A stretch of 64,000 nt of DNA from an uncultured Alphaproteobacteria bacterium (GTDB lineage Bacteria > Pseudomonadota > Alphaproteobacteria > HIMB59 > GCA-002718135), in NCBI GenBank assembly GCA_902522865.1, contig CABYXC010000003.1:33672-97671 (forward strand). The letters run 5' to 3'. Positions 1-64,000 of the stretch are shown one piece after another. A program made the position numbers and the translations under genes. Within the stretch, counting starts at the first letter, position 1. Each line of letters begins with the position of its first letter. Below the pieces are notes generated by a model. The model did no database searches. It was not told where the DNA came from and was given only the letters and a program-made list of their open reading frames with translations.

Positions 1-519
1 ATGGCTATGATGAATGAAAAGGGAGTTAGCAGTGCATGTGAAGCTGATGTATTAGGAAGTATAAGTTGTGATATTTTAAATAAGATAAATAACAGACCTT
101 CACTTTTAGTAGATGTTGTTGATTGTGATCCCAAAACTGATACTTTAGTTTTTTGGCACTGTGGATTAGCTCCAATTAGTATGGCAAAAAAAAATACAGC
201 AAGTGCAACTGTACATTCTAATAGAAGGAAAGCATTGCTATATGATTTTGCATTTAGACCTGGAAAAATAACAATATTTAGAGTTTCAAAATCTGAAAAT
301 AAATTAAAATTTATTGTTATTAAAGGTGAAGTTTTAGATAAAAAAAATTCATTTTCAGGTACTTCGGGTGTTGTGAGATTTCAAACAAATACCTATCAAA
401 AATTAGTTAGATTATTCACGTCTGGTATCGAACATCATCTAGCATTCACATATGGAGATGTATATTCAGAAATAAAAAAACTAAGTGCGCAATTAAATAT
501 TCCAATTTACACAATATGA
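1..519 (+). CDS. L-fucose/L-arabinose isomerase family protein, C-terminal fragment (5' end lies outside the window)
   Basis: The 172 aa are much shorter than this family. 'SSACEADVLGS' and 'VFWHCGLAP' resemble the FucI-like C-terminal domain. The stop overlaps the next start (ATGA). Confidence 0.5.
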   Translation: MAMMNEKGVSSACEADVLGSISCDILNKINNRPSLLVDVVDCDPKTDTLVFWHCGLAPISMAKKNTASATVHSNRRKALLYDFAFRPGKITIFRVSKSENKLKFIVIKGEVLDKKNSFSGTSGVVRFQTNTYQKLVRLFTSGIEHHLAFTYGDVYSEIKKLSAQLNIPIYTI

Positions 520-1604
520 AAATGAAAATTAAATATGGAATTGTTGGAAGTGGACTAATGGGTTGTGAACATATTTCAAATATTAATCTTATAGATTCAG
601 CTGAAGTAATTGCCGTCTCAGATAGTAATGAAAATTCAATAAATAAAGCTAAAAATCTTATCTCTAATGATATTAAAATCTATTCAAATGATAATGAAAT
701 TTTTAAAAATAATGAAGTTGATGCTTTTATTATTTCGACTCCCAATTTTACCCATCATGATATTATTAAAGAAGCATTAAAAACAAAAAAACATTTATTA
801 ATTGAAAAACCCTTATGTACAAAATTACAAGATTGTTTTGAAATTAAAAAATTATCAACTTCATATCCATCAGTAATATGGGTGGCTATGGAGTATAGGT
901 ACATGCCACCTGTTCAAAAAATGATCCAAGAAATAAATAGTAATAAAATTGGTAAGCTCAAAATGCTTTCAATTCGTGAACATAGATTTCCATTTCTCAA
1001 AAAAGTAGACGATTGGAATAGATTCCAAATAAACACCGGTGGAACATTAGTAGAAAAATGCTGTCATTTTTTTGATTTAATGCGCCTAATTACAAATAGT
1101 GAAGTTACACAAGTATATGCAAGTGGTGACCAAAGTGTAAATCATCTTAATGAAAATTATAATGGAAAAGTTCCTGATATATTGGACAATGCATTTGTAA
1201 TTTTAGATTTTAAAAATGGAATAAGAAGTTCTTTAGAACTTTGTATGTTTGCAGAAAATTCAGAAATGCAAGAAGAGCTATGTGTTGTTGGAGATAAGGG
1301 TAAAATAGAAACAGGTGTGCCAGCTGATGCATCTGGAAAAAACTCTTCAGAGGTTAGAATAGGTTTAAGAAACTCTAAAAATGCAATTAAAGAATTAGTT
1401 AAGGTAGATAAAAAAATTTTATCAGCGGGGCAGCATCATGGATCGACTTATTATCAACATTTAGAATTTATTAAAGCAATTAATAATAATTTAAAACCAC
1501 AAGTTTCTATAAACGATGGTCTTCATGCAGTGGCTATTGGAGAAGCAGCAGAGAAATCAATAAAAGAAAATCGTGTGGTTAAGATGAGTGAATTTAATCT
1601 TTAA
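516..1604 (+). CDS. Gfo/Idh/MocA family NAD(P)-dependent oxidoreductase
   Basis: N-terminal Rossmann motif 'KYGIVGSGLMG', an 'LIEKPL' motif, 362 aa. Confidence 0.8.
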   Translation: MKMKIKYGIVGSGLMGCEHISNINLIDSAEVIAVSDSNENSINKAKNLISNDIKIYSNDNEIFKNNEVDAFIISTPNFTHHDIIKEALKTKKHLLIEKPLCTKLQDCFEIKKLSTSYPSVIWVAMEYRYMPPVQKMIQEINSNKIGKLKMLSIREHRFPFLKKVDDWNRFQINTGGTLVEKCCHFFDLMRLITNSEVTQVYASGDQSVNHLNENYNGKVPDILDNAFVILDFKNGIRSSLELCMFAENSEMQEELCVVGDKGKIETGVPADASGKNSSEVRIGLRNSKNAIKELVKVDKKILSAGQHHGSTYYQHLEFIKAINNNLKPQVSINDGLHAVAIGEAAEKSIKENRVVKMSEFNL

Positions 1605-2529
1605 AATTTTCAAAAAATTTATTTGTTTTATCAATTATAAAATTACTTACTCTAACATTTGATTCAGCAGTTACACCTGCAATATGAGGTGTTAAGATGC
1701 AATTCATATCATTTGTAATATTGTTATAAAATGCTTCATTTACTGGTTCATTTTCAAAAACATCTAATGCGAAACCAGAGATATATTTATTTTTATAAGC
1801 ATCAATTAAGTCTTTCTCATTGATGATGCCACCCCTAGAAGAATTAATTATAATTGGTTGTTTTTTCATTTTAATAAAAGCTTGTCTGTCAAATAGATAC
1901 TTTGTTTCATTATTTAATGGGACATGAATAGAAATTATGTCGGCCAAATTAAGAATTTCATCAAATGAAACTTTCTTAACATTTTCTGCCTCCATTTGTT
2001 TCGAAGTTATAAAAGGATCATATGCAATACAGCTAACATCAAAAACATTTACAAGATTTAAAACTTTTTTTGAAATATCCCCAAAACCTATTAGACCAAG
2101 AGTCTTTCCTTTAAGTTCTTTTGTAACAATTGATGTCCTTGGCCATTTTCCTTGTAGAGTTTGTTCTTTAATAATGTGATTTTTTTTTAATAATGTAAGA
2201 GAAGAATTCACAACATATTCTGCAACAGAGTCAGAATTCATACCTGTTGCTGGCTGAACAATGATATTATTTTTTTTACAGTATTCTGTATCTATATTAT
2301 CAAGACCAACACCTAATCTTCCTATAAACTTTAAATTTGATGCATTTATTAAAATTTTCCTATCTAAACTTGTTTTATTCCTTACGATGATGCCATCAAA
2401 TTTCTGAATTTCTCTCTCTAAAAAATCTTTATTTTGCCAGGCATCTTTTTGATAAATTACATCAAATTTTTTATTTATATTTTGCAATGATTGTGAATCT
2501 ATAAATTCTGTAATTAAAATTTTTGTCAT
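1594..2529 (-). CDS. D-isomer-specific 2-hydroxyacid dehydrogenase (phosphoglycerate-dehydrogenase-like)
   Basis: 'GLIGFGDISK' NAD fold, 'NSSRGGIINE', catalytic-type 'TPHIAG'. Last gene of the long minus-strand operon. Confidence 0.8.
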   Translation of the reverse strand: MTKILITEFIDSQSLQNINKKFDVIYQKDAWQNKDFLEREIQKFDGIIVRNKTSLDRKILINASNLKFIGRLGVGLDNIDTEYCKKNNIIVQPATGMNSDSVAEYVVNSSLTLLKKNHIIKEQTLQGKWPRTSIVTKELKGKTLGLIGFGDISKKVLNLVNVFDVSCIAYDPFITSKQMEAENVKKVSFDEILNLADIISIHVPLNNETKYLFDRQAFIKMKKQPIIINSSRGGIINEKDLIDAYKNKYISGFALDVFENEPVNEAFYNNITNDMNCILTPHIAGVTAESNVRVSNFIIDKTNKFFENFKD

Positions 2530-3434
2530 TTAATTTTTCTAATTTTTAATTTTTTTAAAAACTTTTTTACGTTGTTTAAATTTGGTATTGAATATATGCC
2601 TCCAGCTTTCATGCATTTTAAAGTTGCAGTAGCTGCTGCCAATTGAATACTTTGAGAGTTTGATTTATTTAATGATAGAGCTGTTGCAAAAGCACCATGA
2701 AAAACATCTCCTGCACAATTCGTTTCAACTGTTTTTACTTTTGGAACATTACAATGATATAATGAGTTATTTTCAACCCAATAAACACCGTTTGATCCCA
2801 TAGTAACTGCAACAAATTTATTTGTTTCATTGAATATTTGAAAAAGAGCCTTTTGCATATTGATGTTTTTTTTATAAGTTTTCAAACCTTCTTCAGAAAA
2901 TATAGGGTGCGAAGCTTTGTGGACAATTTCAGAAATTTTATTAGAGTTTTTAAAATTATCTAGATCAGCAACACATTTAATATTTTTTTTATTGGTATTA
3001 ATAGCAATATAAGAGGCCATATCTATCCATCTCATATCTATTGAATAAATATCCTTTTTTTTAAAATTTATTTTGGGTATTTTCTTATAATCAAGTAATT
3101 TTGGATCATTGTATGCTGCTAGTAATCTTTCACCTTTTGTATCCTCAATTACAAAGCTTTGCGAAGACTGACATTTTTTAATAAAAATTGATTTACTAGT
3201 ATTAATAGAAAATTTTTTTAATTCATTTTTTAAAAAGTCTGATGAATCATCATCTCCAATTTTTCCTATGAATTTTGATTCAGAGCCCAAAATTTTTGCA
3301 GTAAATGCAGATACTGCTGCTGAACCACCTAATCTTTTATCAATACCTCTAGATAAAACTTTAATTGGTTTTTTTGGAAATTTATTAATCCTACTTATGT
3401 AATCTGTAAATATTGATCCTGCGCAAATGATCAT
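2526..3434 (-). CDS. PfkB-family carbohydrate kinase (ribokinase/sulfofructose-kinase-like fold)
   Basis: N-terminal 'RLGGSAAVSA', C-terminal 'TNCAGDVFHGAFA' (PfkB signature 2-like). 4-nt overlap with neighbours on both sides. Confidence 0.75.
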   Translation of the reverse strand: MIICAGSIFTDYISRINKFPKKPIKVLSRGIDKRLGGSAAVSAFTAKILGSESKFIGKIGDDDSSDFLKNELKKFSINTSKSIFIKKCQSSQSFVIEDTKGERLLAAYNDPKLLDYKKIPKINFKKKDIYSIDMRWIDMASYIAINTNKKNIKCVADLDNFKNSNKISEIVHKASHPIFSEEGLKTYKKNINMQKALFQIFNETNKFVAVTMGSNGVYWVENNSLYHCNVPKVKTVETNCAGDVFHGAFATALSLNKSNSQSIQLAAATATLKCMKAGGIYSIPNLNNVKKFLKKLKIRKIK

Positions 3435-3444
3435 AAAATATTAA

Positions 3445-4014
3445 TTAAAGGTATTTAACTTTACCAATAAACTTTCTAAACCTATCTCTTATAGTTATAG
3501 GATTGAGTGGAATGGGATCAGTTTTAACATTTCCAGAATTGATCTTTGAAATTATCACATATGAATTATCTTTATCATCAATGGCTTTGTTCAATTCATT
3601 AACTGTTTCCTCGCCAGAACATTCAACCACATTTTTGCAGCCAGCTCCTAATGCAACATCCTTCAAGCAAGTTTTCTCATCAGTAAATGTTCGTTGATCT
3701 CCTGTTGATCCATAAGAACCATTATCAATTATCAATAAAGTATAGTTTGATGGTGCTCTATTACCTATTGTTGCTAGAGTATTCATATTCATTAAAACTG
3801 ATCCATCACCATCTATACTAATAACGTGTTTATTTTGGGATAGTGCCAAGCCTAAGCCAATAGAAGATGATAAGCCCATACTGCCTAACATATAAAAAAA
3901 ATTTGGTTGATCACTAATTTTATATAATTCTTGAGATGGAAGACCTATATTACAAATAACTAAGTTATCTTTAAGAATATTTTGTACCTTATTTAATAAA
4001 TCAAAACGGTTCAT
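3445..4014 (-). CDS. comE: Sulfopyruvate decarboxylase beta-subunit-like protein (TPP-binding C-terminal module)
   Basis: 189 aa with TPP motif 'IDGDGSVLMNMN...IIDNGSYGSTG'. The split two-gene layout and sizes match ComD/ComE rather than fused phosphonopyruvate decarboxylase. Confidence 0.6.
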   Translation of the reverse strand: MNRFDLLNKVQNILKDNLVICNIGLPSQELYKISDQPNFFYMLGSMGLSSSIGLGLALSQNKHVISIDGDGSVLMNMNTLATIGNRAPSNYTLLIIDNGSYGSTGDQRTFTDEKTCLKDVALGAGCKNVVECSGEETVNELNKAIDDKDNSYVIISKINSGNVKTDPIPLNPITIRDRFRKFIGKVKYL

Positions 4015-4511
4015 TTATCATCTTTCATTAAATTGAAATCACATAAAATAGCTACTGGTGATTCAACAACTTTGCCATGTTTGCTAAATATTGAAATTTT
4101 ATCTAGTTCTTTTTCAGAAGAGCAATGCAACATAGGTATTCTCAACGTTTGTAAAATATCTTCAGTAATCTTCGCCATTCCACCTTGCGCTCCTACTGGC
4201 TCACCAGGTGTGCCCCTGTAACTAATTAAAAAAACAACAGGCATTTGATATAATTGTAATAGAGAAACAATTGCATTCACTGAATTTCCAATCCCTGTAT
4301 TCTGCATCATTATACACGGGAATTTATTTCCTAAATAAGCTCCAGCACAAATACCCATACCTTCTTCCTCTCTTGGTACAGCCGAATAATAAACATCTTT
4401 ATCATTTTCAAGAATATCAATCATGTTGGCTAATAACTTACAAGGAACACTTAAGTAAAAATCTACTCCACCTTTTTTTAAATTATCTATGATTTTTTTA
4501 CTAATTTTCAT
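4011..4511 (-). CDS. comD: Sulfopyruvate decarboxylase alpha-subunit-like protein (TPP pyrimidine-binding module)
   Basis: 166 aa with 'REEEGMGICAGAYLG' and 'MQNTGIGNSVNA'. Overlaps comE-like by 4 nt. Confidence 0.6.
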   Translation of the reverse strand: MKISKKIIDNLKKGGVDFYLSVPCKLLANMIDILENDKDVYYSAVPREEEGMGICAGAYLGNKFPCIMMQNTGIGNSVNAIVSLLQLYQMPVVFLISYRGTPGEPVGAQGGMAKITEDILQTLRIPMLHCSSEKELDKISIFSKHGKVVESPVAILCDFNLMKDDK

Positions 4512-50994: not shown

Positions 50995-51285
50995 CTATCT
51001 TTTTGATTTCTTTTTAATAGTTTTTTTCTTTTTAACTGTTTTTTTCTTAGATTTTACTGATCTTGAAGATGTCTTTTTTAATTTTTCATTTTCCATCATT
51101 ACTTTTTGCACCATTTTTTTCAGCGCATCAAATTCATCTTTTTTAACAAGATTCATTTTTTTTATTATTTTGTTAACTCGTAAAGATACAATTGTTTCAA
51201 TCTCTTCTTTAACACCTGAAAAAGTGCTCATAGCATCCACCGCAAATTTTGATAAATCGGAAAGTATTTTGTTTCTATCAACCAT
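50995..51285 (-). CDS. UbiK/BMFP-family small coiled-coil protein
   Basis: 96 aa. 'LSKFAVDAMSTFSGVKEEIE...VKKDEFDALKKMV' plus a Lys-rich tail. Preferred over the opposite-strand low-complexity ORF. Confidence 0.5.
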   Translation of the reverse strand: MVDRNKILSDLSKFAVDAMSTFSGVKEEIETIVSLRVNKIIKKMNLVKKDEFDALKKMVQKVMMENEKLKKTSSRSVKSKKKTVKKKKTIKKKSKR

Positions 51286-51308
51286 GTTATAATATTAAAT
51301 ATAGATAA

Positions 51309-52100
51309 ATGAATTTTATTCAACCATCAATAGATCCTGTCATCTTATCAATCGGTTTCATTGAGATAAGATGGTACAGTTTAGCATATATCTTGGGATT
51401 TCTATTAGGAATTTATATTATTAAAAAATTAAACGCAATTTATGGGAATCAATACAGTAATAAAAATATAGATAGCTTTCTTATTTGGGCAGTATTAGGT
51501 GTAATTATCGGAGGACGAACAGGTTATGTGATTTTTTATCAACTTAATGAATTTTTAACTAATCCTTTTTATCTATTTGAAATTTGGAATGGAGGAATGT
51601 CATTTCATGGTGGGTTGACGGGTATAATAATAAGTACCCTAATATTTGCAAAAATTAATGGAAAAAGTTTTTTCTACCTATCTGATTTAGTTTCAATCGT
51701 TGCTCCTATTGGATTATTCTTTGGTAGAATTGCAAACTTTATTAATACAGAACTAATAGGTAGACCAACTGATTTTTATATTTCAGTTATTTATCCATCA
51801 ATAGATAATATACCAAGGCATCCTTCTCAAATATATGAAGCTTTTCTCGAAGGAATTATTTTATTTCTCATATTATTAATCTATTTTTATAAGATAAAAA
51901 AATACAAAATTTATGGAGTAATTAGTGGTCTGTTTTTAGTATTTTATTCCATATTTAGATTTATAATTGAATACGTCAGAGAACCAGATTTGCACCTAGG
52001 ATTATTTTTTAATTTTATTTCAATGGGTCAAATACTATGTATACCTTTTTTTATTTTTGGAATATTAATAATTATCAATGTTAAGCAAAAGAAAAATTAA
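51309..52100 (+). CDS. lgt: Prolipoprotein diacylglyceryl transferase
   Basis: 'IRWYSLAYILGF', 'GGMSFHGGL', 'GRIANFIN.EL.GRPT' and 'HPSQIYEA' motifs. Confidence 0.9.
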   Translation: MNFIQPSIDPVILSIGFIEIRWYSLAYILGFLLGIYIIKKLNAIYGNQYSNKNIDSFLIWAVLGVIIGGRTGYVIFYQLNEFLTNPFYLFEIWNGGMSFHGGLTGIIISTLIFAKINGKSFFYLSDLVSIVAPIGLFFGRIANFINTELIGRPTDFYISVIYPSIDNIPRHPSQIYEAFLEGIILFLILLIYFYKIKKYKIYGVISGLFLVFYSIFRFIIEYVREPDLHLGLFFNFISMGQILCIPFFIFGILIIINVKQKKN

Positions 52101-58000: not shown

Positions 58001-59292
58001 TATAGATTAGTATCTTTTTGCATTGCTGGTGCAGGCATTCCTTTTTCTCCTCCACCAATATTAGGGGCTATGTTTTTAGCATAAACATCACTAATACTGA
58101 GCGGTAACTTACTTGGCTTTTCTATCCAACCAACAAATGGAGTAATAATGAAGAAAAAACCAAAGTAGTAAAGTAAACCCACTCTTGCAATTAAAAGATA
58201 TAAACCTTCAGCAGGAAGCATACCAACGTAACCTAATGCGAAAAAATTAACAAAAAAGCCCATCATAAACCATTTATATATTGGTCTATAATTACAACTT
58301 CTTACTTTTGATCTATCTAGCCAAGGTAGAACGAATAGAATTACTATCGCACCAAACATAAGGAGAACTCCTCCCAATTTGTCAGGTACTGCTCTTAAAA
58401 TTGCATAAAAAGGTGCAAGATACCAGTTTGGAACAATGTGAGCTGGTGTAACAAGTGGATCAGCTGGAATATAATTATCAACTTCAGCCATAAGATTTGG
58501 CCCAAAGAAAATTACTGCAGAAATAGCAACACCAAAAGCACACATAGCTACTGTATCTTTAATTAACATATATGGAAAAAAGTTTACTGAGTCATTGTTA
58601 GTTTTAATATCAATCCCATCAGGGTTATTTGAACCATGAACATGGACTGCAGCAACATGTAATCCTACAACACCAAAAATAACAAATGGTAAAACGTAAT
58701 GAAGAGCAAAGAAACGATTTAAAGTAGCATTTCCAACATTGTAATCACCAAGAAGCCATGTTTTTAATCCTTCACCAATAAATGGAATTGCACTAAATAA
58801 ATTAGTTATAACTGTTGCTCCCCAATAAGACATTTGTCCCCATGGTAAAGTGTAGCCAAGAAAAGAAGTTGCCATCATTAATAAAAATATGAATACACCT
58901 AAAATCCAATTAAGCTCTCTTGGATATTTGTAAGACCCAAAATACATTGCTCTTACTATATGAATGTAAACTATGATGAAGAAAAAGGCTGCGCCATTAG
59001 AATGGATGTATCGCATTAACCAACCGTAATTGACATCTCGCATTATTCTTTCAACACTATCAAATGCCATATCAGTGTGTGGTGTGTAATTCATTGCAAG
59101 AAAAATTCCACTTACTATCATTGTAACAAGCGTAATTGTTGCTAATGCACCAAAACTCCAAAAATAATTACAATTTTTAGGCATTGGATAATCACCGTAT
59201 TCTTTTTTGAAGTAAGAAATAATTGGTAAACGAAACTCTATCCAATTGAGGACAGGATTTTTAAACTGATGTACTTTTCTATTCTTATCCAT
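58000..59292 (-). CDS. petB: Cytochrome b of the bc1 complex
   Basis: 'WSFGALA', 'RYIHSNGAAFFF' and 'PEWY'-equivalent 'VPNWYLAPFYAILR', 430 aa. Confidence 0.95.
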   Translation of the reverse strand: MDKNRKVHQFKNPVLNWIEFRLPIISYFKKEYGDYPMPKNCNYFWSFGALATITLVTMIVSGIFLAMNYTPHTDMAFDSVERIMRDVNYGWLMRYIHSNGAAFFFIIVYIHIVRAMYFGSYKYPRELNWILGVFIFLLMMATSFLGYTLPWGQMSYWGATVITNLFSAIPFIGEGLKTWLLGDYNVGNATLNRFFALHYVLPFVIFGVVGLHVAAVHVHGSNNPDGIDIKTNNDSVNFFPYMLIKDTVAMCAFGVAISAVIFFGPNLMAEVDNYIPADPLVTPAHIVPNWYLAPFYAILRAVPDKLGGVLLMFGAIVILFVLPWLDRSKVRSCNYRPIYKWFMMGFFVNFFALGYVGMLPAEGLYLLIARVGLLYYFGFFFIITPFVGWIEKPSKLPLSISDVYAKNIAPNIGGGEKGMPAPAMQKDTNL

Positions 59293-59916: not shown

Positions 59917-60363
59917 ATGAGAATTGCTCTATTTGAACCCGACATACCACAGAATGCAGGAAACATATTTAGACTAGGTGCCTGTCTTGGAATACCAGTA
60001 GATATAATAGAGCCAGCTGGCTTTGTGATTGATGATAAGAGATTAAAAAGAGCATCAATGGATTACTATGATTATCTAGAATTAAAAAAACATTTAAGTT
60101 GGGAAAAATTTTATGAGTGGTCAAAAGATAACTCATATCGACTCATTCTTCTAACAACGAAAAGTAAAAAAAGTTATTTCGATTATAAATTTCAATCAAA
60201 TGATATTATTTTATTTGGCAGAGAAAGTGCAGGAGCACCTGATTTTGTCCATAGCTCTGTCGATGAAAGATTAACAATACCAATGATAAAGGGGCCTAGA
60301 TCGATTAATCTTAGTAGTTCAGTTGCTATTGTAGCTGGTGAAATGTTACGTCAATTAGCTTAA
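59917..60363 (+). CDS. trmL: tRNA (cytidine/uridine-2'-O)-methyltransferase TrmL (SpoU family)
   Basis: 148 aa. 'IALFEPDIPQNAGNIFR', 'LLFGRESAG' and 'SLNLS'-like 'SINLSSSVAI'. Confidence 0.8.
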   Translation: MRIALFEPDIPQNAGNIFRLGACLGIPVDIIEPAGFVIDDKRLKRASMDYYDYLELKKHLSWEKFYEWSKDNSYRLILLTTKSKKSYFDYKFQSNDIILFGRESAGAPDFVHSSVDERLTIPMIKGPRSINLSSSVAIVAGEMLRQLA

Positions 60364-61217
60364 GCTAAGCTTCCCATTTTTCCTTCTTGATAGTCCATCA
60401 TTGCTTGCTTGATTTCACCTTCAGAATTAGCCACAAAAGGACCATAACGTGCAACAGGTTCTTTAAGTGGCTTACCTGCTAAAACTAGGTAGGATCCTTT
60501 TTCTGATATTGATGTAAGTTGAATCTCATCACTTGACTGATCAAAGTAAATCATATCACCTTTATTAGCGATTTTATCTTCCTCGTTAAATTGTAATTGA
60601 CCATCGATAATATAGATCATAAGATTTTGTTCTTTATCAACATTAAACTTTGTCATATCTGGTTTTGAAAATTGAATATCAAATATTGATACAGGTGAAT
60701 ATGTTTGAACTTTGGATTTGGTTCCATTTATTTCTCCCACAAGAACTTTAATTTCTATATTTGCATTTTCAGATACTGTTGGAATAGTGTTTCTTTTAAT
60801 ATGTTGGTACCAAGGTTTAACTTTTTTATTTTTTTTTGGAAGGTTAACCCAGATTTGTAAACCTTGCATGATACCACCACTCTTCTTAAATTTTTCTGTT
60901 ACTAACTCAGAATGGATTAAACCTGACCCAGTTGTCATCCATTGAACATCACCAGTTTCAATTTCTGCTTGTCCGCCAAATGAATCTCTATGCTCTACTT
61001 CACCACCAAGCATATAAGTAATTGCCTCAAATCCACAATGAGGATGTGCTGGTACACCAGTTGCACCTCCCGGTTCATAATTAATTGGGCCGAAATGATC
61101 AAAAAGAAGAAATGGATCATTTTCTCTCATTCCGGGGATAGGGAAAGCTCTCGTTACAGGTATCCCGTCACCCTCGAAAGTCTTCATACACTCTTTAATT
61201 TCTAATGCTTTTCTCAT
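60360..61217 (-). CDS. Pirin-family protein (bicupin)
   Basis: 'GVPAHPHCGFEAITYML.GE.EHRDS' and 'GDVQWMTTGSGLIHSE' pirin signatures. Confidence 0.85.
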   Translation of the reverse strand: MRKALEIKECMKTFEGDGIPVTRAFPIPGMRENDPFLLFDHFGPINYEPGGATGVPAHPHCGFEAITYMLGGEVEHRDSFGGQAEIETGDVQWMTTGSGLIHSELVTEKFKKSGGIMQGLQIWVNLPKKNKKVKPWYQHIKRNTIPTVSENANIEIKVLVGEINGTKSKVQTYSPVSIFDIQFSKPDMTKFNVDKEQNLMIYIIDGQLQFNEEDKIANKGDMIYFDQSSDEIQLTSISEKGSYLVLAGKPLKEPVARYGPFVANSEGEIKQAMMDYQEGKMGSLA

Positions 61218-61251
61218 TTGTATTTTAAATTATTATAAAAAATATATAGGT

Positions 61252-61341
61252 ATGATTATGAAAAATCAAAATCCAAACCCACCAAAGTGTGGTTGCAGCT
61301 GCAGCTGTTGTTGCACTTGTGAAGGTGGAGATTGCTGTTAA
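61252..61341 (+). CDS. Small ORF too short for the supplied track: 29-aa Cys-rich peptide MIMKNQNPNPPKCGCSCSCCCTCEGGDCC (metallothionein-like)
   Basis: I translated it by hand from the 190-bp gap between pirin and the DUF1636-like gene. It has 9 Cys in the last 17 residues. The coding stretch is a roughly 50% GC island in otherwise very AT-rich intergenic DNA. An alternative start at 61258 would give 27 aa. There is no strong SD. Confidence 0.4.
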   Translation: MIMKNQNPNPPKCGCSCSCCCTCEGGDCC

Positions 61342-61408
61342 TAATACATTCTAAATTAAACAAAATTCAGAAATAAATAATTATAATTTAATTTTTTTTA
61401 AAATTTTA

Positions 61409-61816
61409 CTATTTTAAATTAATAATAATATCTGACTTACTATTTATTGGAGGAAATCTACCAACGATATTAGATCTATATATTTCAGGTCTATGTCTAC
61501 GTCTCAAAAAACCATCATCAGATTTGCCATAGGATAATAGCAGTTCCTCTATTGAATCAATATAAGCAGAATTTTCAGGATCTATATCTCCAAACACATA
61601 GGTAAAACAATTTTCTGCGGTAAAGGATACAATACATGAACGTTTACAATTACTCATGCAATTTACACCTCTTAAAGTTACATTTTTTGTATTTTTAAAT
61701 TTATCAATTAATTTTTGTGCAAGTTTTTCTCCTGCAAGTTTATTATTATTTTGAGCTTTATTAAGGGTACATGTGAGACAAACAGATAATATTATTTCTT
61801 TTTGTTTTTTTGACAT
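61409..61816 (-). CDS. DUF1636-like predicted metal-binding (thioredoxin-like ferredoxin fold) protein
   Basis: 135 aa with Cys clusters 'CLTC' and 'CMSNCKRSC', which I recall as typical of proteins found beside cobW-like genes. Confidence 0.5.
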   Translation of the reverse strand: MSKKQKEIILSVCLTCTLNKAQNNNKLAGEKLAQKLIDKFKNTKNVTLRGVNCMSNCKRSCIVSFTAENCFTYVFGDIDPENSAYIDSIEELLLSYGKSDDGFLRRRHRPEIYRSNIVGRFPPINSKSDIIINLK

Positions 61817-61837: not shown

Positions 61838-62092
61838 CTAATGGGTGTGGTTTGTTAGATTATTAATATCTGACTCCTCTATTTCTTCTATTGATTTTGC
61901 AACTCGCCAATTTTTCATTGATCCGTCTTCATTTCTTGCAGTAATTACAGTTTCGATTGGTGGACAATCAGGCTCATGACAACTGAGCTCAGCAATACTT
62001 ATTATAGTATTTTCTGGTAATTTATATTTCTTGGAAATTAGATGTTTAAGATTTCTTATTTTTTCAACATTTTGAGTTTTACGATTAAACAT
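61838..62092 (-). CDS. Hypothetical small protein (84 aa) with a 'CHEPDCPP' motif and a C-terminal 'HTH' His pair
   Basis: The ORF is tightly packed between the WD40 and DUF1636-like genes (10-nt and 21-nt gaps). I do not recognise a family. Confidence 0.4.
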   Translation of the reverse strand: MFNRKTQNVEKIRNLKHLISKKYKLPENTIISIAELSCHEPDCPPIETVITARNEDGSMKNWRVAKSIEEIEESDINNLTNHTH

Positions 62093-62102
62093 ATTTTCTC
62101 CT

Positions 62103-63140
62103 TTAATTGTCTGCCCATAAAGATGATAAAAGAATAGAACCTTTCATATCCCCAATTAATATTTGTGAATTATCACTAGATATCGCTATTGTTGAAACTT
62201 CCGAACCTGTTGAACTTCTAATCATAATTGGTTTTTTACTTTCATCAATTTCTGCTAATAAAACTGACCCATCTGTAAAACCGGTGAAAACAGCTTTTTC
62301 TCCATTTAGTGCTTTAACAAATGTTGCAAGTTCTTTACCACCGTTTGCAACAACAATTGGCTTTCTCCCCATTGGTCCTTCTTTACCATCAAATGGCCAG
62401 CAAACTGCATCACTGGATCCAGATGTTACCAAATACGGTGTATCACCAACCCAAGTAAAACTTTTAATTTTTGATGGATAACCTCTCATTGCTAAATCAG
62501 CTTTGTCGTTTATGCGCCAACCATGAATTTGATTTTCTTGCATTGCAGTTACAATATATTTTGTATCTGGGCTAAACGTTACAGTTCCATGCGATCCTTT
62601 CCATGTAAAATTTGATGCTGTCCATTTATTATTATTAAGTTTCCACACTGTTACTCCACCGTATCTTGAGACCGCAAGACGCTTGCCTTTATTATCAAAT
62701 GCTAATCCAGCAACAGTACTTTGATGCTCTAAAGTTTGTGGTTTATCTTTGTTTTTTGTCCAAATATAAACAGTCTTTCCTGATGAACAAACTTTAGTAT
62801 CTTTGTGGGAAGCTACACAGTCAACCCACTTTGAACCAAAATTAAAAATTTCATCAATATTTCCATCAGATGATATTTTTAGAAAACGTCCATCTTCTCC
62901 TCCCGTTAACACATGATCTTCATAATTTGTCATACTCAACACTACACCCTTATGTGCTTTAACAGTTTTAGGATCAGATCCAGATTGAAAAAATCTTACA
63001 GTACCGTCTCCAAATCCTACCGCAATTTGATCACGAATTGTAACCGCTTCTGTAGCTGGGGCTCCAATATTAAAAATTGAACCTCTTCTCTCAAGTTCAG
63101 TTTTATTTGATTCTTGAAGTTTTTCTAAATCAGCGTTCAT
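62103..63140 (-). CDS. WD40/beta-propeller repeat protein
   Basis: 345 aa with repeated roughly 40-aa units ending in hydrophobic-W/D patterns ('GGEDGRFLKIS', 'IHGWRI', 'SGSSDAVCWPF', 'GDMKGSILLSSLW'). 4-nt overlap with the upstream GTPase gene. Confidence 0.6.
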   Translation of the reverse strand: MNADLEKLQESNKTELERRGSIFNIGAPATEAVTIRDQIAVGFGDGTVRFFQSGSDPKTVKAHKGVVLSMTNYEDHVLTGGEDGRFLKISSDGNIDEIFNFGSKWVDCVASHKDTKVCSSGKTVYIWTKNKDKPQTLEHQSTVAGLAFDNKGKRLAVSRYGGVTVWKLNNNKWTASNFTWKGSHGTVTFSPDTKYIVTAMQENQIHGWRINDKADLAMRGYPSKIKSFTWVGDTPYLVTSGSSDAVCWPFDGKEGPMGRKPIVVANGGKELATFVKALNGEKAVFTGFTDGSVLLAEIDESKKPIMIRSSTGSEVSTIAISSDNSQILIGDMKGSILLSSLWADN

Positions 63141-64000
63141 GCTGATTTACAATTTTCAAAGCCTTCCTTAAGATTCATATTATCAAGATCACGACCAATA
63201 AATACTACTCGAGAACTTCTATCTTTTCCTTTAGGCCAAGGTCCCATTGGTGAAGCATCCATGAGCATGTGTACTCCTTGAAATACATATCGCTCTTCTT
63301 CACCTTTAAAGTTCAAAATTCCTTTTGATCGAAGTATGTCCTGACCCTTAGTCCTGAGTAAATTTCCAAACCAATCTTGGAACTTATCCATATCTAATGG
63401 TGTATCAGATACAAAGGATAGACTAGTAACATCATCATCATGTTCATGATCATGATCTGATTCAAGAAAGTCAGGTTCAATATCTAATACTCTATCTAGA
63501 CTAAATGCATTTAAGCCTACGATTTCCTCAAGAGGTGCATCACAACGTGTTGTTTTAATAATCTTAGCAAAAGGATTAATTTTTCTAATACGATCATTAA
63601 CTTTTACAATGTCATTATCTCCAACAAGTTCAACTTTATTTAACAAAATTACATCAGCAAAAGCAATTTGTTCTTCTGCTTCATGATGATCGACTAATTG
63701 AGAACTTAGATGAACAGCATCGGCAACTGTAACAATTGCATCTAATTTTGTACGATCAGCAACATCTTGATCAACAAAGAAGGTTTGTGCTACTGGTGCT
63801 GGATCTGCTAAACCAGTTGTCTCAACAATAATTGCATCAAGCTTATCAGCACGTTTCATTAAGCCACTTAGAATTCTAATTAAATCACCTCTAACAGTGC
63901 AACAAATGCACCCGTTGTTCATTTCAAATACTTCTTCATCAGCATCAACAACAAGATCATTGTCGATACCTTGTTCACCAAATTCATTAACTATGACAGC
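63137..64000 (-). CDS. COG0523 (CobW/ZigA/YeiR-type) G3E-family metallochaperone GTPase, N-terminus beyond the window end
   Basis: 'GCICCTVRGDL' metal-binding motif, 'VETTGLADP', 'LLNKVEL' and an acidic His-rich linker 'ESDHDHEHDDD'. The frame stays open upstream of the track Met to position 64000 ('AVIVNEFGEQGIDNDL'). Confidence 0.85.
   Translation of the reverse strand, partial: AVIVNEFGEQGIDNDLVVDADEEVFEMNNGCICCTVRGDLIRILSGLMKRADKLDAIIVETTGLADPAPVAQTFFVDQDVADRTKLDAIVTVADAVHLSSQLVDHHEAEEQIAFADVILLNKVELVGDNDIVKVNDRIRKINPFAKIIKTTRCDAPLEEIVGLNAFSLDRVLDIEPDFLESDHDHEHDDDVTSLSFVSDTPLDMDKFQDWFGNLLRTKGQDILRSKGILNFKGEEERYVFQGVHMLMDASPMGPWPKGKDRSSRVVFIGRDLDNMNLKEGFENCKSA

Follow-up and report, generated by a model that had tools for sequence, protein, structure and literature searches.

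A 27-codon cysteine-rich gene fixed at the end of a SAR11 zinc locus encodes a candidate metallothionein-like peptide

The cysteine-rich ORF and its neighbours

The DNA analysed here, a stretch of 64,000 nucleotides referred to as the window, harbours a short cysteine-rich ORF on the plus strand, within the 191 bp that separate a pirin gene start (61217) from a DUF1636 gene stop (61409). The pirin gene (60360..61217, minus strand; Pfam Pirin and Pirin_C) is its divergent upstream neighbour. On the other side, all on the minus strand, are the DUF1636 gene (61409..61816; Pfam PF07845, E 1.5e-25), which ends the zinc-cluster transcription unit in the window, and the genes for an 84-aa protein with a CHEPDC motif (61838..62092; no Pfam or NCBIfam family), a WD40 beta-propeller protein (62103..63140; Pfam WD40 and beta-propeller matches) and a COG0523/CobW-type GTPase metallochaperone (63137..64000; Pfam cobW, E 3e-42, plus CobW_C). 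The 84-aa and WD40 genes belong to a COG0523 cassette, of which the metallochaperone gene is cut by the window end. At word-limited sensitivity, only 112 relatives of the 84-aa protein were found in 5.8 billion clusters, all of them on low-GC marine contigs. Entries identical to the neighbouring proteins of the window are named Pelagibacteraceae, that is, SAR11.

The ORF runs ATG ATT ATG AAA ... TGC TGT TAA at 61252..61341 (plus strand; translation MIMKNQNPNPPKCGCSCSCCCTCEGGDCC), just as the first-pass annotation had described it. The 29 codons given there are indeed what the ORF reads, but the conserved start lies two codons further in. The first ATG (61252) is replaced by GTG, ATA, ATT, ATC or GAA in close relatives and is without counterpart in lineages where MurJ stands upstream, so the second ATG (61258) is probably the conserved start; the probable true CDS would then be 27 codons plus the TAA stop (61258..61341, plus strand; MKNQNPNPPKCGCSCSCCCTCEGGDCC), with the ATG ATT codons (61252..61257, plus strand) probably a non-coding part of the 5′ leader. 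A possible Shine-Dalgarno element, AGGT (61248..61251, plus strand), can be read from the sequence 6 nt upstream of the second ATG, a spacing that would fit the ATG at 61258 and not that at 61252. GTG and TTG starts occur in some lineages' copies of the gene.

From the second ATG the peptide has 27 residues, MKNQNPNPPK-CGCSCSCCCTCEGGDCC. Cysteine accounts for nine of them (33%; CGC, CSC, CSC, CCC, CTC and CC), His, Phe, Tyr and Trp for none, and no signal peptide or export signal is apparent in the 27 residues. All nine Cys fall in the last 17 residues, the core CGCSCSCCCTCEGGDCC (61288..61338, plus strand; His-free and aromatic-free), in the CxC, CCC and CC arrangement correctly noted at first pass as a metallothionein hallmark. 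The ORF also stands out as the GC-rich island in an AT-rich spacer that had been claimed (GC 0.43–0.45 over 61260–61349 vs 0.07–0.23 in the flanking spacer). Off-frame translations elsewhere in the 64-kb window reach six to seven Cys per 17 residues, the ORF is the sole stretch within the window with nine per 17, and in shuffles the expected count of the degenerate pattern CGCSCSCCC is 0.00. Chance could account for Cys density by itself; it is conservation, not composition, that sets the ORF apart.

Annotation status

A collection of 15 billion proteins contains no exact match to the 29- or 27-residue sequence or to two variants. Using a 40-aa in-frame extension of the peptide as the homology query, a word-indexed search of 5.8 billion clusters returned eight entries, all of them this peptide under wrong, longer calls, and HMMER, run exhaustively on 1.84 billion representatives, returned the same eight plus one more. 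Each of these nine protein entries is this peptide with a spurious upstream extension or a frameshift, and all are unnamed and free of Pfam domains. One further HMMER match was an unrelated low-complexity protein. No family in Pfam or NCBIfam matched the peptide at E ≤ 1, metallothionein models included, no PDB chain at E ≤ 10, and over the region Rfam gave nothing credible, nor was there a tRNA. Literature searched on SAR11 or Pelagibacter with metallothionein, cysteine-rich or zinc yielded nothing relevant. The peptide gene has never been annotated, in that the correct ORF is absent from the recorded gene calls. The lower limit of gene callers is roughly 30 codons, and genes at or below it can be core to metal-homeostasis loci.

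Conservation and selection on the peptide

Loci were gathered by three independent routes: genome contigs via DUF1636, a single metagenome scan with the degenerate pattern CGCSCSCCCxCEG, and homologues of the 84-aa neighbour. SAR11 (Pelagibacteraceae) genomes and marine metagenomes together gave about 90 loci with the ORF, its start and stop positions being fixed across them. On the genome contigs it was present in all 20 close informative loci, and it was kept in lineages in which DUF1636 identity is only 85% (L018) or 64% (L020 and L021). The metagenome scan yielded the same ORF in 58 of 64 contigs, with the consensus M-K-N-[QEK]-N-P-N-[PS]-P-K-CGCSCSCCCTCEG-[GE]-[GD]-C-C-stop. Among the 84-aa homologues (71–79% identity), 10 of 10 informative loci carried the ORF, and it was called as a gene in the records of none. 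The shorter pattern CGCSCSCCC had been judged too degenerate and was tightened for the metagenome scan; applied in its loose form to viral contigs, it gave chance low-complexity matches only, and no viral relatives.

In alignments, identity over the 84-nt ORF is 81–88%, vs 38–59% over the flanks, and the differences within the ORF are mostly synonymous (TGT/TGC, AGC/AGT, CCA/CCT/CCG and GGT/GGC). On average 35–46% of synonymous sites differ, and up to 71% between deep lineages. The pN/pS ratio is 0.067 for 40 unique sequences from all loci (pS 0.46), although the metagenome pattern forced codons 11–23 at the amino-acid level, so that unbiased evidence comes only from the genome set (0.12; variable sites by codon position 5/4/17) and from the codons not fixed by the search pattern (0.105). 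In the genome set (9 unique sequences) all Cys codons are kept, with TGT/TGC switching only. Cys26 and Cys27, which are outside the search pattern, are invariant in 31 unique metagenome sequences, where pS is 0.83. The non-Cys residues NPNPPK, T, E and G are likewise under purifying selection, with a pN/pS of 0.14–0.31 for non-Cys codons.

As the substitutions are mostly synonymous and the ORF is conserved while its flanks diverge, this is almost certainly a translated, real protein-coding gene, and purifying selection acts on the protein. A search of relatives for synonymous bias had been proposed at first pass; with about 90 loci and a pN/pS of 0.07–0.12, it bears out the selected small coding gene claimed there (pN/pS about 0.1).

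Altered copies are rare, with five encountered: a TAA nonsense at codon 4 (L199), an ATA start (L168), C11F plus E22K (L016, which a regular expression left out of the Cys-conservation and selection statistics), C21S (L231), and a stop changed to AAG that adds KFIN (L226). Such copies reflect either sequencing errors or a gene that is dispensable. No Cys-rich ORF was present beside more diverged clusters, in which the 84-aa protein is at 51–65% identity (L218–L225), or beside DUF1636 at ≤53% identity, including a SAR116 genome and GC-rich Alphaproteobacteria. The peptide family appears to be confined to a subset of SAR11.

Position at the end of the zinc locus

The full layout is seen in longer relatives. 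Read in the direction of the peptide gene, its stop is followed on the opposite strand by the optional DUF1636 gene, the 84-aa, WD40 and COG0523 genes and znuA, and beyond a Zur box by znuC, znuB and zur on the strand of the peptide gene. For example, in L001, which is 99% identical to the window, znuA spans +2839..+3804 and the Zur box stands at +3845, counted from the peptide stop. ZnuA scores 272 bits against an NCBIfam curated cut-off of 268; ZnuC, ZnuB and Zur are the best matches for their genes, yet below the NCBIfam cut-offs.

In 77 of 77 oriented loci the next gene past the peptide stop is on the opposite strand (tail-to-tail), and a co-directional gene downstream was found in none of them. 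This next gene is ZnuA in 40 loci (41–52 nt from the peptide stop), in which the COG0523 cassette is missing, the 84-aa protein in 15 (11–27 nt) and DUF1636 in 22 (67–83 nt), so that convergent stops are 11–83 nt apart overall. The cassette is thus an optional insert in the zinc locus, the peptide occurring without it in 40 of 77 loci, and DUF1636 is in turn optional within the cassette (present in 22 of 77 loci, with 15 loci of otherwise the same layout lacking it). The upstream neighbour varies by lineage, being either pirin or MurJ/TrpS; since MurJ/TrpS stand there in other lineages, pirin is an incidental neighbour. That the peptide gene invariably stands at the end of the znuA/znuCB/zur zinc locus is the main new result. 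The metal-related neighbourhood proposed at first pass is borne out, in a stronger and more specific form than claimed, namely the znuA/znuCB/zur locus; pirin is incidental to it and DUF1636 dispensable.

The Zur box (ATGTTATAATATAACAT, palindromic) is located at the divergent promoter between znuA and znuC, with no or one mismatch except for one locus with two. Among the loci that extend far enough to include this promoter, it was found in 30 of 31 znuA-adjacent and 6 of 6 cassette loci. Between −400 and +150 of the peptide stop no Zur box (≤4 mismatches in 17) was found, save for one AT-run with four mismatches; with no Zur box of its own, the peptide gene does not qualify as a direct member of the Zur regulon. 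A Zur-like box at window positions 51284–51300 is at chance level, and a 6-1-6 palindrome (ATAACAATGTTAT) over the start codon in some lineages is not conserved and was likewise put down to chance. At one variant locus, L210, a gene for a CsoR/RicR-type copper sensor is close by.

COG0523 subfamily 5 genes are known to cluster with those for WD40 proteins and ZnuABC, and several members of the subfamily are predicted to be Zur-regulated (PMC2770081). The cassette of the window matches this described clustering. The subfamily 5 description (PMC2770081) does not contain the word metallothionein, and the SAR11 peptide, as found here, occurs cassette-free as well.

Features of the transcription unit

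The presumed promoter site is an AT-rich region shared with the divergent pirin gene (61218..61247, plus strand). A consensus scan of the window found no sigma-70 site able to drive the ORF, its plus-strand matches being within or downstream of it, and promoter and terminator consensus scans in the window, L201 and L205 gave nothing usable, with matches at the background level of AT-rich DNA. A block upstream of the ORF (TTGTATTTTAAATTATTATAAAAAATATATAGG) is kept even in L007, whose upstream gene differs. In MurJ-context lineages, a conserved TTGAAAATATAGATTT block 20–36 nt before the start is a candidate promoter element, and TTGAAA-N16-TAnnnn, 6–8 nt before the ATG, is an unproven candidate for a leaderless promoter; leaderless initiation is made doubtful by the GTG and TTG starts of some lineages.

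In the window, the AT-rich spacer from the peptide stop to the DUF1636 stop (61342..61408; 67 nt, no strand assigned) has no hairpin (fold z = +0.6), and no terminator was called in it. In znuA-adjacent lineages, the last codons (E-G-G-G-C-C-stop) plus the 40-nt spacer form a hairpin with a ΔG of −17 to −27 kcal mol−1 and z-scores of −4.4, −5.7 and −3.0. This two-part hairpin is outside the loop and stem rules of the terminator scanner and was assessed by folding. Its 5′ arm is within codons 22–27, and the spacer varies except for the non-coding 3′ arm, AACACCC, which is the same throughout. RNAalifold detected no covariation, with compensatory change in 0 of 11 predicted pairs, and the support for the hairpin is thermodynamic plus the invariance of the 3′ arm. 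Because a T-run follows the hairpin on the peptide strand only, as it does in most znuA-adjacent lineages, the hairpin is predicted to be a one-directional intrinsic terminator that would make the gene a transcription unit of its own in these lineages. Codon 25 is GGG in hairpin lineages and encodes Asp25 (GAT) in the window lineage, which has lost the hairpin; the G-rich codon suggests a dual constraint, from protein and hairpin.

Comparison with known metallothioneins and polycysteine ORFs

SmtA/BmtA-type metallothioneins are roughly 55 aa long. These and the Pseudomonas PflQ2 protein (Metallothio_Pro) are, like the SAR11 peptide, small Cys-rich bacterial proteins, and they are cytoplasmic and buffer or store zinc. 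The SAR11 peptide is about half as long as SmtA/BmtA, has no room for their zinc-finger-like fold and no Pfam or NCBIfam match at E ≤ 1, is physically fixed at the end of a zinc-uptake cluster and has no Zur box of its own. Lacking a profile match and a Cys-plus-His ligand fold, it does not belong to Metallothio_Pro. The PflQ2 metallothionein uses nine Cys in a Zn3Cys9His cluster (PMC7387436), and the SAR11 peptide has nine Cys too, but no His ligand.

Among eukaryotic proteins, fungal family-8 copper metallothioneins (Neurospora crassa and Agaricus bisporus) are about 25 aa long, free of His and aromatic residues and built on CGCS/CSCS-type motifs, and in the vertebrate metallothionein beta-domain nine Cys bind three divalent or six Cu(I) ions. 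These are comparable to the SAR11 peptide in size or Cys count, a likeness of composition only, and no homology of the peptide to either was detectable. The fungal proteins are copper-induced; the SAR11 peptide packs nine Cys into 17 residues with a CCC run and a terminal CC.

Two systems offer functional parallels. In the oligotrophic marine Synechococcus sp. WH8102, znuABC uptake and BmtA storage are both under Zur, in a scheme of zinc ‘banking' (PMC9337993). This pairing of ZnuABC with a metallothionein in an oligotrophic marine bacterium parallels what is proposed here for SAR11 (PMC9337993), yet bmtA is at a separate locus and is Zur-activated via Zur boxes, while the SAR11 gene is convergent with the znuA operon and has none. 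In mycobacteria, leaderless polycysteine short ORFs are Cys-responsive attenuators (bioRxiv 10.1101/834739). Like the SAR11 ORF they are unannotated, very short and marked by runs of Cys codons; unlike it, they precede, on the same strand, the cysteine-metabolism operons under their control, whereas the SAR11 ORF has no co-directional gene, is found among zinc genes and is conserved over the whole peptide. Of the two features that define such attenuators, a co-directional operon and a link to cysteine or sulfur genes, neither was found at the SAR11 loci.

Proposed function and alternative explanations

The peptide has the generic features of a metallothionein, namely low mass (27 residues; limit about 10 kDa) and a Cys-rich make-up of CxC, CC and CxxC type with few or no His or aromatic residues. 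Judged from its sequence, metallothionein is the most likely identity, and our verdict is a new sequence family within the metallothionein class. Its metal binding through thiolates is probable, and the odds that its role is zinc buffering or storage are about even; zinc is favoured as the metal because the place in the zinc locus is invariant. The picture of a very short metallothionein-like zinc-thiolate buffer or store, fixed in the zinc locus and made from its own transcript, is the one we moderately favour. We infer metal binding, zinc specificity, stoichiometry and the direction of regulation.

On this zinc-thiolate reading, the gene would have a promoter of its own and yield a tiny monocistronic transcript, and the peptide would be cytoplasmic, with the nine Cys thiolates of its 17-residue tail wrapping a small metal-thiolate cluster. 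By analogy, the cluster could hold about three ions of Zn(II) or Cd(II) and, in the case of Cu(I), up to about six; nine thiolates should be enough for three zinc ions, as in the Zn3Cys9His cluster of the Pseudomonas metallothionein (PMC7387436). The peptide would buffer or bank zinc imported by ZnuABC, possibly exchanging zinc with the COG0523 chaperone where the cassette is present. Apo-metallothioneins are disordered. Several observations count against this reading: the lack of a Zur box of its own, which leaves zinc-responsive control no more than possible, the lack of similarity to metallothionein models or PDB chains, the absence of the gene where the neighbouring cluster is more diverged, and the few altered copies. 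SAR11 relies on exogenous reduced sulfur, which would make a peptide that is one-third Cys costly.

One other explanation is a metal-thiolate or thiol peptide that is not for zinc, either a metallothionein that detoxifies Cu(I) or Cd(II) or else a redox or thiol buffer, whose place in the zinc locus would be historical. The genomic position does not discriminate between zinc and copper or cadmium, the gene has no Zur box of its own, and short His-free, CxC-rich fungal family-8 metallothioneins of similar size bind Cu(I). Yet the znuA/COG0523 zinc cluster adjoins the gene in 77 of 77 loci and in at least four flanking arrangements, and the copper-sensor gene that would speak for this explanation occurs at L210 only; we regard it as unlikely. 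An improbable alternative is a regulatory small ORF with the peptide as a by-product, in which translation decides between termination and antisense run into the znuA operon, either because the Cys-dense stretch senses Cys-tRNA supply or because translation of the codons in the hairpin 5′ arm acts. It draws on the mycobacterial precedent of Cys-responsive polycysteine ORFs (bioRxiv 10.1101/834739), on an invariably convergent, Zur-regulated unit with stops 11–83 nt apart, and on the terminator 5′ arm within codons 22–27 of znuA-adjacent lineages. Classical attenuation is impossible with no same-strand gene following in any locus, however, and the adjoining genes are for zinc, not cysteine; moreover, the constraint on non-Cys residues (pN/pS 0.14–0.31) is unlike that of typical leader peptides, and the window lineage has no hairpin (z +0.6).

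A precursor of a modified or exported peptide, whether a RiPP or a secreted metal-scavenging ‘zincophore', would also be short and Cys-rich, and the conserved 10-residue N-terminal segment could serve as its leader, very short as that would be. No modifying enzyme, protease or dedicated exporter was found within about 4 kb in any of four contexts, the ORF being flanked there by zinc genes and, upstream, by pirin or MurJ/TrpS, and there is no signal peptide, which makes this explanation highly improbable and leaves the RiPP alternative raised at first pass without support. The second alternative raised there, a structured RNA, was built on the self-complementary GCAGCTGCAGCTG, and it can be taken together with two further non-coding readings, a terminator element and an ORF arisen by chance where GC is higher. 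In its favour, reverse frames are often stop-free too and the 3′ end partly doubles as a hairpin arm in some lineages. But GCAGCTGCAGCTG becomes GTAGTTGTAGCTGC or GTAGCTGTAGCTGC in relatives via synonymous substitutions, variation concentrates at third positions of the plus frame (5/4/17; pN/pS about 0.1), start and stop are fixed in about 90 loci, and neither a covarying structure (RNAalifold) nor a known family (Rfam) was found. The RNA or chance-ORF explanation, whose probability is close to nil, is effectively refuted by the unconserved palindrome and the coding substitution pattern.

Possible coupling to zinc uptake and significance

The tail-to-tail layout with a Zur-repressed operon would allow inverse coupling by convergent transcription. 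When zinc is scarce, Zur would free the znuA operon and convergent transcription would silence the peptide gene; when zinc is sufficient, the znuA operon would be off and the peptide made, with no sensor of its own. Such coupling in the layout would explain why the tail-to-tail arrangement has survived every rearrangement of the locus. The full version, in which the peptide is a zinc bank with expression inversely coupled to uptake via the gene layout and determines how much Zn (and Cd) a large share of SAR11 cells in the ocean contain, is a long shot and quite unlikely to hold as a whole.

In the ocean, SAR11 outnumbers every other bacterial lineage, and its streamlined genome ranks with those studied most closely. 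That every annotation has missed a conserved gene there is already notable in itself. If the peptide binds zinc, it is to our knowledge the shortest bacterial metallothionein and founds a new sequence family. It would then provide SAR11 with an arm of zinc homeostasis for storage or buffering, parallel to the metallothionein ‘banking' of marine Synechococcus (PMC9337993), and would bear on models of the Zn and Cd quotas of heterotrophic bacterioplankton. In a survey of SAR11 trace-metal genes, znuA was found in half of the genomes and its role called intriguing; the survey describes conserved znuA synteny with a Fur-family gene and mentions no metallothionein or storage protein (PMC4771312).

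A conserved Zur box in the SAR11 zinc locus

In the SAR11 loci, the divergent znuA/znuC promoter carries a single palindromic Zur box of almost invariant sequence (consensus ATGTTATAATATAACAT), found, among other loci, at +3845 in L001 and +1028 in L205 (offsets from the stop codon of the Cys-rich peptide ORF). The box could be used as a search motif for the remainder of the SAR11 Zur regulon. In the window, a Zur-box-like site with two mismatches (ATGTTATAATATTAAAT; 51284-51300) is flanked by a 96-aa ORF (50995-51285, minus strand) and an lgt-like gene (51309-52100, plus strand), and the same site is present in the relative locus L209; the count of such matches is at the level expected by chance.

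The His/Asp-rich loop of ZnuA consists of a (DH/DHD)n repeat whose length is highly variable among loci (L164, L178, L182, L205 and L018). ZnuA ORFs, as delimited mechanically, are 312 to 367 aa long, except in L018, where the ORF reaches 530 aa with a start that is possibly over-extended. Such variation in both repeat and ORF length suggests that the metal-capturing loop expands and contracts rapidly.

Genes in and beside the COG0523 cassette

Within the COG0523 cassette, as found in low-GC marine Alphaproteobacteria, the WD40 gene is always followed by the gene for an 84-aa protein with a CHEPDCPP motif (window 61838-62092, minus strand; relatives P0016-P0156). This protein matched no family in Pfam or NCBIfam, and only 112 relatives were found among 5.8 billion clusters, at the word-limited sensitivity of the search. 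It may be a small, so far undescribed protein that partners COG0523 subfamily 5.

DUF1636, a domain of unknown function, is usually mentioned in the setting of cobalamin clusters. At distant loci (L025-L034, positions about 1-4400), drawn from Alphaproteobacteria with a GC content of 0.59-0.69 plus one gammaproteobacterial MAG, it is adjoined in divergent orientation by COG0523, WD40, ZnuA-like and Zur-like genes. Its recurrence beside these genes in many distant genomes links DUF1636 to zinc homeostasis, beyond cobalamin clusters alone.

Chance Cys-rich frames and variant loci

Cys-rich frames can appear by chance in the genome of the window, as is shown by CYFWCCRITCCCSPCSW, an off-frame translation inside the cytochrome b gene (about 58634-58684, minus strand) that holds 7 Cys in 17 residues and recurs in relatives; this Cys-dense stretch is a by-product of codon composition.

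Several loci depart from the common arrangement. In L218 (1-1905), from a more distant low-GC lineage, MacB/FtsX-type and DUF3299 genes rather than znuA precede the COG0523-WD40-84-aa cassette, which lacks a Cys-rich ORF. In L210 (region +42 to +1670, counted from the stop codon of the peptide), the peptide is faced by a truncated ZnuA-like protein with a His-rich N-terminus, followed by a 211-aa protein whose family is unknown and by a metal-sensing repressor of the CsoR/RicR type. In the single-cell contig L007 (whole length), SpoU and Rieske genes lie beside the 84-aa gene, which is fused or rearranged there, and the called protein P0157 combines the N-terminus of the 84-aa protein with the peptide; this arrangement is probably an assembly chimera. 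Finally, L227 (1730-1959) differs from all other loci: immediately after the 84-aa gene its sequence is GC-rich and then runs into a (GAT)n repeat, which may reflect a chimeric contig or an insertion.
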